A stretch of 10,237 bases of DNA from a virus (Duplodnaviria > Heunggongvirae > Uroviricota > Caudoviricetes): the IMG/VR virus record IMGVR_UViG_3300032665_000013. One strand, written 5' to 3'. A model generated the notes under the pieces. That model ran no database searches. It was not told the DNA's origin and was given only the letters and a program-made list of their open reading frames with translations. The first letter of the stretch is position 1; every line of letters begins with the position of its first letter. The position numbers and the translations under genes are program-made. Positions 2,511 through 7,127 of the stretch are shown piece by piece.

Positions 2511-2592
2511 TGGTGCCCTAGGAGGGACTCGAACCCCCATACTCCAATTACGGCGTTGATGACCGCTTAGAAGGCGGGACCGATACTAGGGC
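2511..2592 (-). tRNA. D-arm-less tRNA-like gene with Arg(TCT) anticodon
   Basis: Perfect acceptor GCCCTAG/CTAGGGC, only an 8-nt linker where the D arm should be, CCGC-CTTCTAA-GCGG, 24-nt variable region, T arm GGGGG-TTCGAGT-CCCTC, A73, CCA. Confidence 0.7.
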
Positions 2593-3397: not shown

Positions 3398-3421
3398 AAA
3401 CTATCTCCTCTTGATGTGGCT

Positions 3422-3450
3422 ATTATACAAGAAGGGAGTATATGTGTCAA
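3422..3450 (-). promoter_or_regulatory. Consensus sigma70 early promoter
   Basis: TTGACA-17-TATAAT with an extended -10 TG. Confidence 0.85.
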
Positions 3451-3462
3451 CCATTAAAAACA

Positions 3463-3470
3463 CATAAATA
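3463..3470 (+). promoter_or_regulatory. T4-type late promoter (CATAAATA)
   Basis: One mismatch from T4 TATAAATA, upstream of the GGAG SD and ATG 3494. The identical octamer precedes the kinase gene. Confidence 0.65.
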
Positions 3471-3493
3471 TCAAAAATCGGAGATATATTTTA

Positions 3494-4312
3494 ATGAAAT
3501 CGTTCAAATCATTTATCAAATCATTTATCAAAAAAGCTATCTTAATAACTGCTGTGCCTACCCATGGCAAGCATGCCCAAGAAAAGCCACCAATTATAAC
3601 GGCAGAACCTGTTCATGGTAAACATGCTATAAAAGAAGACAATGACGCTTATTATGATTGGAATTACCATAACGATAATAGTCATCTTGGCAAAGATACA
3701 CAAGACGTTCATAATAAAATAAATCTATCTACGAATCAATTTAAAAAGAAACATGGATCAGCTAGTGTCGAACATCTCCATAATTATTCAGCATTTAGTC
3801 AAGATACTAATAGACACCTCATTCATAAAGCTGTAGGAGGAAAATCCCCCTTTGAAAATAATCTTGGACTGGATCCTGTCAAAAGAGAATCCAATGCTAA
3901 AGATATGGTTCATGGAGTTGATCATGCATTAAAAAATTCCAAACTTGACCATGATTTACATGTGTATCATGGAACTAATACATGGCACCCCGGAGAAGAA
4001 TCGGCTAAACATTCAGAAGGTATAGTGCATTTACCTACATATTTATCAACTTCGATTAGTAAATCTGTAGGTGTTGATTATACTCATCCACATACTAAAT
4101 TAGAAAATAAAGGTCATCATATTCTCCATATTCACCTCAAAAAAGGTCAACATGGGGCATATCTTGGTAACAATTCTTGTTTTGATGGAGAACATGAATT
4201 TCTGATGCCAAGAGATACAAAATTAAAGATTCATCCAGAACCAACTAAACTTAAATATGATGGTAATGATTTACATGTATGGCATGCACACGTAGTAGAC
4301 AACGAGGAATAA
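3494..4312 (+). CDS. His-rich ADP-ribosyltransferase 1 (VIP2/C3-like fold), putative internal virion protein
   Basis: NYS..SQDTNRHL helix, LHVYHG, YLSTS, GEHEFLMPR (ExE). 32 His in 272 aa. N-terminus MKSFKSFI. Confidence 0.85.
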   Translation: MKSFKSFIKSFIKKAILITAVPTHGKHAQEKPPIITAEPVHGKHAIKEDNDAYYDWNYHNDNSHLGKDTQDVHNKINLSTNQFKKKHGSASVEHLHNYSAFSQDTNRHLIHKAVGGKSPFENNLGLDPVKRESNAKDMVHGVDHALKNSKLDHDLHVYHGTNTWHPGEESAKHSEGIVHLPTYLSTSISKSVGVDYTHPHTKLENKGHHILHIHLKKGQHGAYLGNNSCFDGEHEFLMPRDTKLKIHPEPTKLKYDGNDLHVWHAHVVDNEE

Positions 4313-4314
4313 AT

Positions 4315-5187
4315 ATGAAGAATTTTAAAGATTACATGGTAGCTAATGAATTTGATGGTATTCCATTAATGCCAATTCCTACTCACGGAAAACATTCCAT
4401 CCCATCTGATTCGGAAGAAGATGATAAAATACCGATGATACCTGATATGGTACACGGTAAGCATTCATTTAAAGAAGAAAATGAGCATAATTTTCCTCCT
4501 GTCACAAAATCGGCAGCATGGTCTAGCCATAGCAATAATGAAAATTCTCATTTAGGAAACAATGTAGAAGAGGTGCATCAAAAATTAGACATGCCTCGTG
4601 AAAAATTCGAATCGACTCCCTCATATGACCACGTACATAATTATACTTGTAGCTCTAATAGATTAAATAAAAATCTTATTAAAAAAGCTAAAGGAATGGA
4701 TCCATTTAAAAGTGAAAAATGGGAAGACTCTGGTGTTAGACGAGATAAAAGACATCTAAAACAAGTTCATAACGAAAAAGTAAAGGACATAGACGAAGCA
4801 TTAAAACATCATACTCTTGACCATGATTTACATGTATACCATGGAACAGACGCTTTTAATCCAGATGAATTAGCCAAACAACATCCACAAAGAAAAATTA
4901 AATCAGCTGCATATATGTCAACATCTATCGACAAAGAGAAAGCTATGGGGTTTGCTGGTAAAGAGCCGGGAAATGCGGAACCATATCAGAGTGCCCATAG
5001 TGATTCCCATATTCTGCACGTTCATCTCAAAAAAGGACAACATGGAATGTATTTGGGTAGTCATAGTAATTTTGAAAAAGAAAAAGAATTTCTACTTCCT
5101 AGAAATACCACAATGAAAGTTCATCCAGAGCCAACTGTTATGGATAACGGAGTGAAGGTATGGCATGCACATGTGGTAGGGCGTTAA
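4315..5187 (+). CDS. His-rich ADP-ribosyltransferase 2, tandem paralog of ART1 (290 aa)
   Basis: ATG 4315 with GAGGA SD. NYT..S..LNKNL, LHVYHG, YMSTS, EKEFLLPR. 27 His in 290 aa. DNA identity with ART1 includes 30/32 nt at 3944-3975 vs 4816-4847. Confidence 0.85.
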   Translation: MKNFKDYMVANEFDGIPLMPIPTHGKHSIPSDSEEDDKIPMIPDMVHGKHSFKEENEHNFPPVTKSAAWSSHSNNENSHLGNNVEEVHQKLDMPREKFESTPSYDHVHNYTCSSNRLNKNLIKKAKGMDPFKSEKWEDSGVRRDKRHLKQVHNEKVKDIDEALKHHTLDHDLHVYHGTDAFNPDELAKQHPQRKIKSAAYMSTSIDKEKAMGFAGKEPGNAEPYQSAHSDSHILHVHLKKGQHGMYLGSHSNFEKEKEFLLPRNTTMKVHPEPTVMDNGVKVWHAHVVGR

Positions 5188-5507
5188 GCGGTTTCATCCT
5201 GCATTTCGAGGCCGTTCCACCATACTAGTCCATAAAATCTTTTCAAAATCTTGTCTTTTACACTATTCTTAAAATTCGGATAACTTATTTTATTGATGAT
5301 CGATTCTGATATAATATGGGCGAACAATTTTTTGCTCACACTAATACGATATGCATAATCGGAATTAGGAACCGTGTAAATTTCATTAATTCTTTCAGGG
5401 AAAACCGCTTCTAGGTGTTCCTTTCGTCGTGCCCTTACCATAAGAAAATCATGGTCATTACGATCTTCGACCGCAGATAAAAATCCATTATTCAAACAAA
5501 TCCACAT
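5184..5507 (-). CDS. Hypothetical protein (107 aa), probably co-transcribed with the kinase
   Basis: AGGA SD, 12 nt after the kinase stop. Its stop overlaps the ART2 stop (TTAA). Confidence 0.8.
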   Translation of the reverse strand: MWICLNNGFLSAVEDRNDHDFLMVRARRKEHLEAVFPERINEIYTVPNSDYAYRISVSKKLFAHIISESIINKISYPNFKNSVKDKILKRFYGLVWWNGLEMQDETA

Positions 5508-5519
5508 TATAAAAATTCC

Positions 5520-6218
5520 TCATTTATAAGAAGCTATCAATGCCTCTTTACGTTTATTAAAGTTATGGTGTAATTCTTTCCAATTGTCAAGCCCTGATGT
5601 AGAAAAAAGGTGATGTATGTGTTTATCGTCAATATTTTTAACAGCTTCTAACCCATGTTTTTCAGCTTCAGGATGATGCTTAAACACTGTGCTAAACACA
5701 TGACCAGACGCTTCATTATTGTTTCGTAAAGAATTCTTTTCAGCTATATCCGGACCATATTCTTTACCACCACCTCTAGCCCGAAAATGGAAAGATCCCC
5801 CATGATCTATTGCATGGAGGTTTCCAGTTTTATCATTATGAACAATATTATCATGCTCTAGCCCAACGATATCCCAATTTTTAGTCAATGTTGCGGCATG
5901 ATACATTTTTCCAATTTGATTAGCTTGGTGGTGATTAAGATTTTCAAATTCTTTTGGTTTCATTTGTCTAACATCTGAGTTCCATTTTGTCTTAATTCCA
6001 GATTTTTCGTGCATCTCTGGATTAACTGTATGAATTCCCATATGGTTATAAATTTTACCAGTAAGAGCCTCAGTCTTAGCTTGATCTGGATTAGCATAAT
6101 GCTTTACATAAAACTTATCACCTGTTTTACTATCCTGATGTACACCACCGGGATTCGATCCATATTGTGTACCTGAGACAGGTTTAAGTTCTTCTAAAAA
6201 CATACGAAAAGATTTCAT
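5520..6218 (-). CDS. His-rich HipA/PI3K-like kinase-fold protein (232 aa), putative internal virion protein
   Basis: ATG 6218 with AGGAG SD. GSNPGG loop, FYVK (Lys), TEAL (Glu), NWDIVGLEHDN (catalytic loop), IDHGG (DFG equivalent). 22 His in 232 aa. N-terminus MKSFRMFLEE. Confidence 0.75.
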   Translation of the reverse strand: MKSFRMFLEELKPVSGTQYGSNPGGVHQDSKTGDKFYVKHYANPDQAKTEALTGKIYNHMGIHTVNPEMHEKSGIKTKWNSDVRQMKPKEFENLNHHQANQIGKMYHAATLTKNWDIVGLEHDNIVHNDKTGNLHAIDHGGSFHFRARGGGKEYGPDIAEKNSLRNNNEASGHVFSTVFKHHPEAEKHGLEAVKNIDDKHIHHLFSTSGLDNWKELHHNFNKRKEALIASYK

Positions 6219-6235
6219 GAAATTCTCCTTTCTCA

Positions 6236-6243
6236 TATTTATG
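6236..6243 (-). promoter_or_regulatory. T4-type late promoter (CATAAATA) inside a hairpin upstream of the kinase SD
   Basis: Minus strand reads AATTCT-CATAAATA-TGAGAAAGGAGAATTTC-ATG. Confidence 0.65.
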
Positions 6244-6394
6244 AGAATTGAACTTCCTTGGCTTTTCCTTCTTTAACCTCTTTTCTTCGTTTAGATTGTT
6301 CTTTTCCTACGGCGGGATCCCTAATACTAATCCCGCCACTCCATTCATGGATATCCAACAATACACCTTTATAATTAGTATATTCATTCAACAC
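6239..6394 (-). CDS. Possible small ORF (51 aa, GTG/TTG start)
   Basis: Open frame (V)LNEYTNYKGVLLDIHEWSGG...KEVQFS fills the gap between genes. No SD or homology recognised. Confidence 0.3.
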   Translation of the reverse strand: MLNEYTNYKGVLLDIHEWSGGISIRDPAVGKEQSKRRKEVKEGKAKEVQFS

Positions 6395-6641: not shown

Positions 6642-7127
6642 TTATCGAGGCAATTGTGTATTTTTTGTTTCTCTATAATCTCCAAATGAATGATCGAATT
6701 TAAATTCATATAGAAAATAAACGTTGCGAGCATAATCAGGTACAATACCGGGAGTAAATTCATATCCTAGCTGTTTAACTAACGCTTTCATAATTTGTTT
6801 GTCGTCTGTAGACATCTTACGTTCTTCTGGTAGGATTTGTCCCTCTTCGCCTACAGCAGGATGCGTATGTATAAAATACAACATACGACTATCATCTTCC
6901 CATGGAAGAGTCACACTTACACTAGAATCATTAAAAGAGGTGAAAATATTTGTAACTTTACAAATACCTTTGGATTCGTAAATAATAAATCCATGCTCAA
7001 ACCCATCTTCATGTGCCAACCTAGACGCTTCAATTGACTTTTCCATAAGAAGAGGTTGTGCATCACAAGCATATGCAGTGCTGGAACTAACAATAAGCAA
7101 AGTCATCCCTAAAATCATTTTAAACAT
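6642..7127 (-). CDS. Signal-peptide-bearing JAB/MPN-like (DUF4329-like) protein
   Basis: N-terminal MFKMILGMTLLIVSSSTAYA (K, hydrophobic core, AxA), then EHGFIIY...FIHTHP...MSTDD (E...HxH...SxxD). Confidence 0.65.
   Translation of the reverse strand: MFKMILGMTLLIVSSSTAYACDAQPLLMEKSIEASRLAHEDGFEHGFIIYESKGICKVTNIFTSFNDSSVSVTLPWEDDSRMLYFIHTHPAVGEEGQILPEERKMSTDDKQIMKALVKQLGYEFTPGIVPDYARNVYFLYEFKFDHSFGDYRETKNTQLPR

Follow-up and report, generated by a model that had tools for sequence, protein, structure and literature searches.

Does a locus in the genome of an uncultured phage encode enzymes that enter the host cell ready-made, together with the phage DNA? This question was raised by positions 3,463 to 6,243 of the IMG/VR virus record IMGVR_UViG_3300032665_000013 (Caudoviricetes), a stretch of 10,237 nucleotides (nt) that we analyzed as a whole and that is referred to as the window. 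The locus encodes two proteins with an ADP-ribosyltransferase (ART) domain (ART1 and ART2), a kinase-like protein and a small protein, orf107 (Table 1). A previous sequence-only reading had proposed that ART1, ART2 and the kinase are expressed late, carry a capsid targeting sequence (CTS) like that of the internal proteins (IPs) of phage T4, and are injected as a pre-made toolkit for the modification of host proteins by ADP-ribosylation and phosphorylation. The best explanation overall was that the locus is probably of the internal-protein type and belongs to an uncultured T4-like phage from fresh water, and head packaging and injection of these enzymes appear likely to much the same degree. 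As far as sequence reaches, the toolkit reading is supported. It builds on observed gene structure, folds, conserved motifs, domain fusions and co-occurrence, and late expression, packaging into the head, cleavage, injection, catalytic activity, the targets and what orf107 does enter it as predictions.

According to this explanation, NATAAATA promoters would drive the expression of two Alt/C3-like ARTs and a CtkA/HipA-like kinase late in infection, and a CTS-like N-terminal peptide would carry all of them into the prohead core. A gp21-type protease would then trim the tag, after L8-E9-E10 in the kinase and at the [LIV]xE closing a leader of 48-54 amino acids (aa) in the ARTs. The mature enzymes would remain in the head, be ejected together with the DNA and modify host proteins ahead of any phage gene expression, and untagged orf107 would stay outside the capsid as the partner of the kinase. 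Kinase and ART would represent a conserved effector pair, both members of which are delivered by other phages as one polypeptide of the MuF or polyvalent type.

N-terminal tags and leaders

The N-termini on which the proposal had been based (MKSFKSFI, MKNFKDYM and MKSFRMFLEE) were recovered upon translation, extending to MKSFKSFIKS in ART1 and MKNFKDYMVA in ART2, with MKSFRMFLEE in the kinase-like protein. Start codons at 4315 (ART2) and 6218 (kinase) were adopted because Shine-Dalgarno sequences and the N-termini of homologues agreed on them; the longer open reading frames (ORFs) starting at 4279 and 6236, respectively, were rejected on the same grounds. T4 IPII and IPIII begin with MKTYQEFIAE (PMC8442874). 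The T4 record matched this sequence, as given in the earlier reading, for both proteins, with IPI starting instead with MKTFKEFTS. In the T4 CTS, the aromatic residues at positions 4 and 7 are responsible for targeting, and L or I at position 8 and E at position 10 direct processing; gp21 cuts after L/I-x-E, and T4 propeptides comprise 10-19 residues (PMC9026906). Kinase, ART1 and ART2 alike showed the targeting residues, F4 together with F7 or Y7. At the processing positions the kinase has L8 and E10, ART1 has I8 and S10, and ART2 has M8 and A10.

The N-terminal consensus of the kinase family, derived from 104 homologues, was MKSFKQFIEE. Position 4 was F in 84 of the 104 sequences and aromatic in 86, position 7 was F or Y in 88, a hydrophobic residue at position 8 occurred together with E10 in 76, and some [LIVMF]xE motif was present at residues 6-13 in 102. 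The proposed capsid-type tag was thus upheld by sequence criteria, with the T4 targeting residues kept across the kinase and ART families. Exactly three ORFs of the window matched the tag pattern against 0.005 expected in shuffled sequences; the pattern was derived from these three N-termini, which makes the count circular for the window, and it carries over to other loci. In the complete relative G002 (162 kb) the same tag was found on the ARTs and on two proteins encoded between a gp67-like prohead gene and gp21, the region where T4 keeps its prohead-core genes. The two latter proteins (L079:5881-7078, minus strand) begin with MKTYKQLVSE (289 aa) and MKSFKQFITE (108 aa). The larger one matched a PHROG over its first 38 residues only, so that this PHROG may be defined by the tag.

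In the ART family the N-terminal leader is variable and predicted to be disordered, with 1-3 repeats of a hydrophobic strand followed by HGxH[AS]. The sole invariant residue of the leader region is the Glu at its end, and [LIVMF]-x precedes this Glu in 21 of 22 members. This fits a gp21 cleavage site under selection, which would close a long, IPI-like propeptide.

ADP-ribosyltransferases ART1 and ART2

ART1 and ART2 are paralogues (41% identity), and both matched PF03496 above the curated cut-off (E 1e-12 and 2e-17, respectively). They also matched the PHROGs 'ADP-ribosyltransferase exoenzyme toxin' and, more weakly, 'Alt-like RNA polymerase ADP-ribosyltransferase' (PHROG 802; ART2 scored E 2e-5, and G002 has an 839-aa paralogue with E 3e-11). 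The AlphaFold2 (AF2) model of ART2, with a predicted local distance difference test (pLDDT) score of 82, had Certhrax, C3bot and Vip2 as top Foldseek matches (E 3e-10 for Certhrax, C3 and Vip2), and also matched other C3 exoenzymes and Plx2A. The claim of two ADP-ribosyltransferases was confirmed in this way for the family of both proteins and the predicted fold of ART2.

Typical motifs were found in both proteins, i.e. VYHG (residues 157-160), STS (185-187) and EHE (233-235) in ART1, and VYHG (174-177), STS (202-204) and EKE (256-258) in ART2. In a profile alignment to C3larvin, VYHG of the ARTs fell on VYRG, YLSTSI on YLSTSI, and E-x-E-(F)LLPRNT on Q-x-E-LLLPRNT. STS and both Glu of the ExE motif (S202, T203, E256 and E258 in ART2) were invariant across 22 diverged relatives. 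At the position of the Arg in the R-S-E triad, 18 of 22 ART relatives had His and 4 had Ser; among the four ART paralogues of a complete relative it was Ser in three, the fourth not being resolved. Since the canonical Arg is replaced by His (Ser in some), NAD-dependent activity is uncertain, and we place lower confidence in ART catalysis than in packaging and injection. In C3-like and binary toxins, ExE goes along with Arg-specific transfer; by analogy, the motif suggests Arg-specific ADP-ribosylation also for these ARTs.

The kinase-like protein

The AF2 model of the kinase-like protein reached a pLDDT of 91.5 and a predicted template modelling (pTM) score of 0.88. It aligned to Helicobacter pylori CtkA with Z 16.6 over 202 residues (root mean square deviation 3.0), to CotH, PI4K type II, HipT/HipA, a Legionella Ser/Thr kinase, actin-fragmin kinase and LepB with Z 12-14, and to PI3Ks with Z 10-11. 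The kinase that had been claimed from the sequence was therefore recovered as a predicted fold without a Pfam family.

The protein contains the Gly loop GSNPGG (residues 20-25), K39, E50, NWD (114-116), HDN (122-124) and IDHGG (137-141). Invariance was seen for K39, E50, D116, D123, N124 and D138, each of which is found in the secondary-structure element where it would be expected; K39 is in strand 3, E50 is in the next helix, and NWD and HDN come ahead of the strand after that. In the model, the conserved positions would correspond to the Gly loop, the ATP Lys, the helix-C Glu, the catalytic Asp/Asn and the metal-binding Asp of protein kinases. The C-lobe is helical (helices 160-230) and aligned to CtkA, and H122 and D123 are adjacent. 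In a profile search (1.84 billion representatives; 50% identity clusters) the kinase family comprised 2589 clusters at E<=1e-10. One homologue (P0026, 338 aa) contained a GNAT acetyltransferase domain (PF13508/PF00583), and another (L013:5290-6669, 459 aa) a tagged N-terminal extension of 220 aa of no recognised kind.

Fusions of kinase and ART domains in other phages

Kinase and ART domains were found joined in single proteins of other phages. The Pseudomonas phages Dolphis and Touem01 have the kinase domain within proteins about 1200 aa long, whose C-terminal part is a PF03496 ART with R-S-E intact. In Mu-like prophages of Syntrophaceae and of a Deltaproteobacteria metagenome-assembled genome, the gene adjoining the portal gene encodes a 753-aa protein composed of MuF (residues 57-186), the kinase domain (283-511; 32% identity to the window kinase, E 2e-36) and a DRAT-type ART (582-744). 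Long proteins are frequent in the kinase family, as 84 of its best 150 representatives exceeded 600 aa. Ten long kinase-domain proteins were sampled, eight of which had an ART (seven PF03496, one of them also with NUDIX, and one MuF-DRAT); the other two had NUDIX alone and no known domain, respectively. Polyvalent phage proteins combining kinase and ART span 700-1200 aa.

In the literature, fusion to MuF and a polyvalent architecture are described as hallmarks of effectors that the head delivers (PMC5576092, PMC5512222, PMC9503650). Because the kinase domain is fused to ARTs in both MuF and polyvalent proteins, the kinase-ART pairing is, judged by domain architecture, conserved over three delivery formats, with the T4-like phages splitting the pair into separately tagged genes. 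We regard these fusions as the strongest new and independent support for delivery of the enzymes by the phage head. ART-kinase adjacency, for which a synteny check had been suggested, recurs in T4-like loci, and in other related loci the kinase directly follows an ART gene within one operon.

The polyvalent protein of Dolphis (gp117, L001:2051-5719) has 1222 aa with 1.1% Arg in a locus of 64% GC; its GenBank label is 'ADP-ribosyltransferase' only, and the kinase-like domain is unannotated. G002 encodes four ART paralogues at 48.4-53.4 kb (L078:8434-13386) in one operon headed by TATAAATA. The 839-aa paralogue among the G002 ARTs gave HEAT-repeat-like matches and aligned to the Alt-like PHROG 802 over a longer stretch.

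Phage context and promoter-like motifs

The window is AT-rich (~35% GC) and almost every gene is located on the minus strand. Minus-strand neighbours of the locus are genes for a dCMP deaminase, a SegE-type GIY-YIG endonuclease, a DUF2786/DUF7168 protein and Pth2, and six to seven tRNAs. The locus begins 360 nt from a tRNA. The T4 record shows its three IP genes around the tRNA cluster, encoded on the early strand beside segB, e and nudE, and therefore the positions of the window locus and of the T4 IP genes are analogous. An identical 10-kb sequence (99.9-100% identity) was present in four independently assembled lake metagenome contigs, and among sequencing runs it was found solely in lake or freshwater metagenomes, with no RNA run listed. 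Contigs with an identical kinase also encode td, nrdA, cd, rnlA and a gene of the T4 Y07B family. Judged by gene content (td, nrdA, cd, rnlA, SegE, tRNA cluster), the phage context is T4-like. A gp21-type prohead protease (PF03420) was encoded in all three complete kinase-carrying relatives tested, and G002 also encodes gp22 and gp23.

That the locus is built of two convergent units was substantiated by the stop codons of ART2 on the plus strand and orf107 on the minus strand, which overlap in TTAA at 5184-5187. The minus-strand unit was found to contain, in addition to the kinase gene described earlier, orf107 as a second, untagged gene. The idea that the locus interrupts an early-gene region was correct for the two ART genes, which are on the opposite strand, and not for the kinase unit, which is co-directional with the early-type genes.

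Both units start, as had been stated, at a T4-type late-promoter-like motif, CATAAATA. Three copies were counted in the window against 1.41 expected, and 35 of 200 shuffles reached this number. We therefore rejected enrichment of the motif as evidence in its own right, and the weight rests on its position and on the relatives. In G002, TATAAATA or VATAAATA lies 23-38 nt upstream of the genes for gp23 (PF07068, E 6e-153), the gp22 scaffold and the gp18 sheath, and equally of further ORFs in the structural region, of the kinase gene and of the operon with the four ART genes. At least nine distinct divergent loci had NATAAATA 26-39 nt ahead of the start codon of the kinase. These findings support NATAAATA as the late-promoter motif of these phages, and late expression of the locus is predicted from it. 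ART2 has no motif at a usable distance and begins 2 nt after ART1; it should therefore be co-transcribed with ART1.

The partner gene orf107

In most related loci, orf107 was found 10-60 nt downstream of the kinase gene, down to a kinase identity of 35%. It occurred in 9 of 50,697 phage records, all of them among the 20 records with the kinase domain, and was situated about 2.5 kb downstream of the kinase domain in eight and about 15 kb off in one. The gene thus accompanies the kinase in all three settings, i.e. in tagged T4-like loci and with MuF fusion and polyvalent proteins. Its family has more than 850 members and no name, and M1, W2, S11, R25, R27, F36, D50, Y51, R54, Y76, N78, F79, K80 and W96 are invariant. 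The untagged orf107 protein is unremarkable in composition, with 2.8% His, and the mean Arg content of the family is 7.4%. Searches against Pfam, PHROGs, NCBIfam and PDB gave no match for orf107. A similarity to the PADLOC model REase_II (E 0.003 over 78 residues) was disregarded as too weak, and an assignment as a HipS- or HipB-like antitoxin was dropped for want of sequence support. Complex prediction for kinase and orf107 returned a score of 0.00, which gives no verdict and counts neither way. By analogy with MuF toxin systems, orf107 would be a non-packaged functional partner of the kinase, most likely an inhibitor or off-switch, or an immunity factor.

The orf107 homologue of the Mu-like prophages (L085:4831-5603) is part of a three-gene unit with a 52-aa ribbon-helix-helix (RHH)/RelB-like gene ahead of it and a 95-aa gene of no known kind behind it, and this unit is divergent from the MuF-kinase-DRAT gene. 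In some Pseudomonadota, a structural look-alike of orf107 is fused to NUDIX.

Amino acid composition

The His contents given earlier were reproduced exactly, with 11.8% in ART1, 9.3% in ART2 and 9.5% in the kinase, compared with 2.2% in the 16 other ORFs of the window pooled. Family means were 10.7% for the ARTs and 9.4% for the kinase; in G002 the five locus proteins reach 7.8-9.9%, and hardly any other long ORF there exceeds 7.5%. His is not enriched in the fused versions (the kinase domains of Dolphis and of the prophages have 0.9%), and the T4 IPs contain 1-2% His. His-richness is a mark of the T4-like, separately tagged versions. Arg makes up 1.1% of ART1, 2.8% of ART2 and 2.6% of the kinase versus 5.0% in the other ORFs of the window, and the ARTs also contain 11% Lys. 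This Arg depletion is common to the Dolphis polyvalent protein (1.1%) and not to the MuF-DRAT protein (9.7%). Arg depletion is possibly an avoidance of self-modification by an Arg-specific ART, which would extend to the catalytic Arg.

Alternative explanations

Several observations weigh against an internal-protein-type locus with injected enzymes. The gp21 protease was observed in relatives only, megablast of positions 3400-6300 against the 50,697 phage records yielded no match, and within this phage collection the ARTs matched MuF-type ARTs only, with the module in no cultured phage. The kinase-like protein had no match in Pfam, PHROGs or NCBIfam and no meaningful sequence match in the PDB, neither as a single sequence nor as a profile, and its assignment as a kinase comes solely from the predicted fold. 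The number of CATAAATA copies was within chance and not significant by itself in 200 shuffles of the window. In the T4 record no ATAAATA is located within 60 nt upstream of the IP genes, so that T4 offers no precedent for such promoter placement. In addition, ART1 and ART2 have no Glu at position 10 of the CTS, and the canonical NAD-binding Arg of R-S-E is absent from all sampled members of the ART family, with His or Ser in its place.

The missing Glu at position 10 of ART1 and ART2 would also fit if the three proteins were late cytoplasmic enzymes that are never packaged, like the T4 ARTs ModA and ModB (PMC9503650), and if their common N-terminus were a 5' cassette for recombination or translation initiation. 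We consider this unlikely, since conservation is seen at the peptide level and at the T4 targeting and cleavage positions in families down to ~35% identity, the same tag is carried by proteins within the head-morphogenesis module of G002, and MuF fusion proteins of other phages contain these domains too. The missing Arg, in turn, was noted in all sampled members and could mean, together with the unusual composition (9-12% His, 11% Lys), that the ART-like proteins have no catalytic function and, being rich in His and Lys, fill the head in association with DNA as T4 IPII and IPIII do; the kinase would then be the sole enzyme, if there is one. However, STS, both ExE Glu and other core residues were invariant in the 22 diverged members, which points to purifying selection on the active site, and ARTs of the H-Y-E class have His at the equivalent NAD-binding position. 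Head filling of this kind therefore seems improbable to us.

Among the proteins of similar fold, HipA and HipT are toxin kinases that are paired with small antitoxins, and orf107 is tightly coupled to the kinase and follows an RHH/RelB-like gene in Mu-like prophages. Kinase and orf107 might consequently form a toxin-antitoxin-like or superinfection-exclusion pair in the producing cell, next to ARTs that are unrelated neighbours. Such a pair has a very small probability in our view, given that the kinase has the best CTS match of the three proteins and is embedded with ARTs in MuF and polyvalent head proteins; moreover, an immunity role of orf107 would be compatible with injection, as in MuF polymorphic toxins (PMC5576092).

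The preferred reading as a locus for injected enzymes might be widened to one that explains all components jointly, which we regard as doubtful and put forward tentatively. Kinase, ART and orf107 (and NUDIX in some fusions) would then constitute one conserved, ADP-ribose-centred system for host takeover, delivered pre-made by the CTS, MuF and polyvalent routes. The kinase would act on the target of the ART or on the ADP-ribose mark, and orf107 would be an off-switch, expressed by itself early, from read-through transcripts, and along with the kinase at late times. The ART leader with its HGxH[AS] repeats would serve as a safety catch in cis that is removed by the protease, and the Arg-poor, His-rich recoding would represent self-protection against Arg-specific ADP-ribosylation.

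Comparison with known systems

With T4 IPI, IPII and IPIII the locus has in common the CTS-like N-terminus, L/I-x-E at positions 8-10 in the kinase, the position at the tRNA cluster and the presence of gp21 in relatives of the window. The T4 proteins are small and basic, whereas the three proteins here belong to enzyme families and have 232-290 aa; they are rich in His (9-12% compared with 1-2%), and the ARTs start with a leader of 48-54 aa that contains HGxH[AS] repeats. All T4 IP genes are on the early strand, as is the kinase unit here, but the two ART genes are on the opposite strand. T4 Alt, a head-packaged, Arg-specific ART of ~680 aa, is the long-standing model of an enzyme injected with phage DNA. 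The ARTs of the window share with Alt the branch of the ART superfamily (PHROG 802), the ExE motif and the predicted head packaging and protease trimming. They differ from it by having less than half its length, a CTS of the IP type, 2-4 paralogues per phage and His or Ser in place of the catalytic Arg.

In CtkA, HipA/HipT, PI4K type II and CotH, the features shared with the window kinase are the fold, Gly loop, Lys, Glu, the D..DN loop and ID[HN]G, as suggested by the putative mapping of residues. The window kinase is without detectable sequence similarity to these proteins, has 232 aa, is phage-borne and carries a capsid tag. T7 gp0.7 is made from the incoming genome, in contrast to the window kinase, which is predicted to arrive pre-made, and the two families are unrelated. 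As a phage kinase, gp0.7 acts on proteins of the host as soon as infection begins (PMC5512222).

MuF toxins and polyvalent proteins of the MuF-kinase-DRAT and Dolphis gp117 types contain, like the locus, a kinase-like domain and an ART, in their case within one head protein, and immunity genes of MuF systems sit nearby, as orf107 does (PMC5576092). In the window the two domains are encoded by separate genes, each with its own CTS, and the fused forms lack the His-richness. The polyvalent kinase clade described before has lost the C-terminal subdomain, and an insert separates its catalytic His from the Asp (PMC5512222). The window kinase shows neither feature, and membership in this clade was rejected because a helical C-lobe is present and H122 and D123 are adjacent.

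Head-packaged ARTs as well as kinases in polyvalent proteins are published themes (PMC9503650, PMC5512222), and head-packaged ARTs, the CTS and variable IP loci are already known. Our literature search found no paper on CTS-tagged ARTs together with this kinase. The earlier statement that the combination had not been described accordingly stands for CTS-tagged ARTs with a kinase; it does not stand for head-packaged ARTs and polyvalent kinases, both of which have been published. The CTS-tagged mini-ARTs with His or Ser for Arg, the kinase family and its linkage to ARTs, orf107 and the composition appear undescribed in the searchable literature.

If this explanation is true, a large uncultured group of T4-like phages injects an enzyme set of several ARTs with an altered active site and a kinase. 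To our knowledge, no phage has been shown so far to carry a protein kinase in the virion. The kinase-like family has no Pfam model, comprises thousands of clusters and is linked to ARTs, and would therefore be a widespread unannotated component of phage-host conflict. The CTS-like tag and the conserved cleavage site would allow the virion cargo of metagenomic phages to be predicted by a sequence rule, and the orf107 family is a candidate for regulators or immunity proteins.

Further features of the window

Table 1. Genes, N-terminal elements and putative transcription and translation signals of the locus, with positions in the window
Feature	Positions	Strand	Remarks
Sigma-70 consensus TTGACA-17-TATAAT	3422..3450	-	Perfect (12/12); directed at orf76 and the tRNA cluster, with the ARTs behind it
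T4-type late-promoter-like motif CATAAATA	3463..3470	+	Heads the ART1-ART2 unit; ends 23 nt before ATG 3494, with GGAG between
ART1	3494..4312	+	272 aa; PF03496
ART1 leader, residues 1-48	3494..3637	+	MKSFKSFI, two HGKH[AS] repeats, ends at IKE (E48)
12-nt tandem duplication, 2.4 copies	3504..3532	+	Gives KSFIKSFIK in the ART1 tag; identical in four independent contigs
ART2	4315..5187	+	290 aa; PF03496
ART2 leader, residues 1-54	4315..4476	+	MKNFKDYM, two HGKHS repeats, ends at FKE (E54); residues 35-60 predicted disordered
orf107	5184..5507	-	107 aa; untagged; family without name
Kinase-like protein	5520..6218	-	232 aa; predicted fold (AF2)
Kinase CTS-like decapeptide MKSFRMFLEE	6189..6218	-	Likeness to MKTYQEFIAE of T4 IPII/IPIII
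Possible hairpin over the kinase Shine-Dalgarno sequence	6221..6256	-	Minimum free energy -16.4 kcal/mol, z -3.3; late-promoter motif inside the structure
Late-promoter-like motif CATAAATA	6236..6243	-	Heads the kinase-orf107 unit; 17 nt before ATG 6218, with AGGAG between

The sigma-70 consensus is a predicted restart point of early-type transcription. It faces away from the ARTs, and therefore early-type units lie on both sides of the ART unit. At 3586-3605 on the minus strand, antisense in the 5' part of ART1, there is a terminator-like hairpin with a T-run, which could halt minus-strand transcripts that cross the ART genes before they reach the sigma-70 promoter at 3450.

The predicted late transcript of the kinase unit was unstructured, unlike read-through RNA. 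In a test for accessibility of the kinase Shine-Dalgarno sequence against shuffled upstream sequences the result was not significant for the window (18% of shuffles were as low), and it was significant in only 2-3 of 11 loci. It is suggestive only that the hairpin would mask the kinase Shine-Dalgarno sequence in read-through (early) but not in late-promoter transcripts, as a switch resembling that of the T4 e gene.

At 2514-2592 (minus strand) Rfam detected a seventh tRNA with 32.3 bits, barely over the gathering score. This tRNA was absent from the ARAGORN output and had been described in the sequence-only reading as lacking the D-arm. An ORF of 161 aa at 6642-7127 (minus strand), upstream of the kinase unit and conserved in the four identical contigs, had no family match; its N-terminus (MFKMILGMTLLIVSSSTAYAC) resembles a signal sequence or the start of a lipoprotein.

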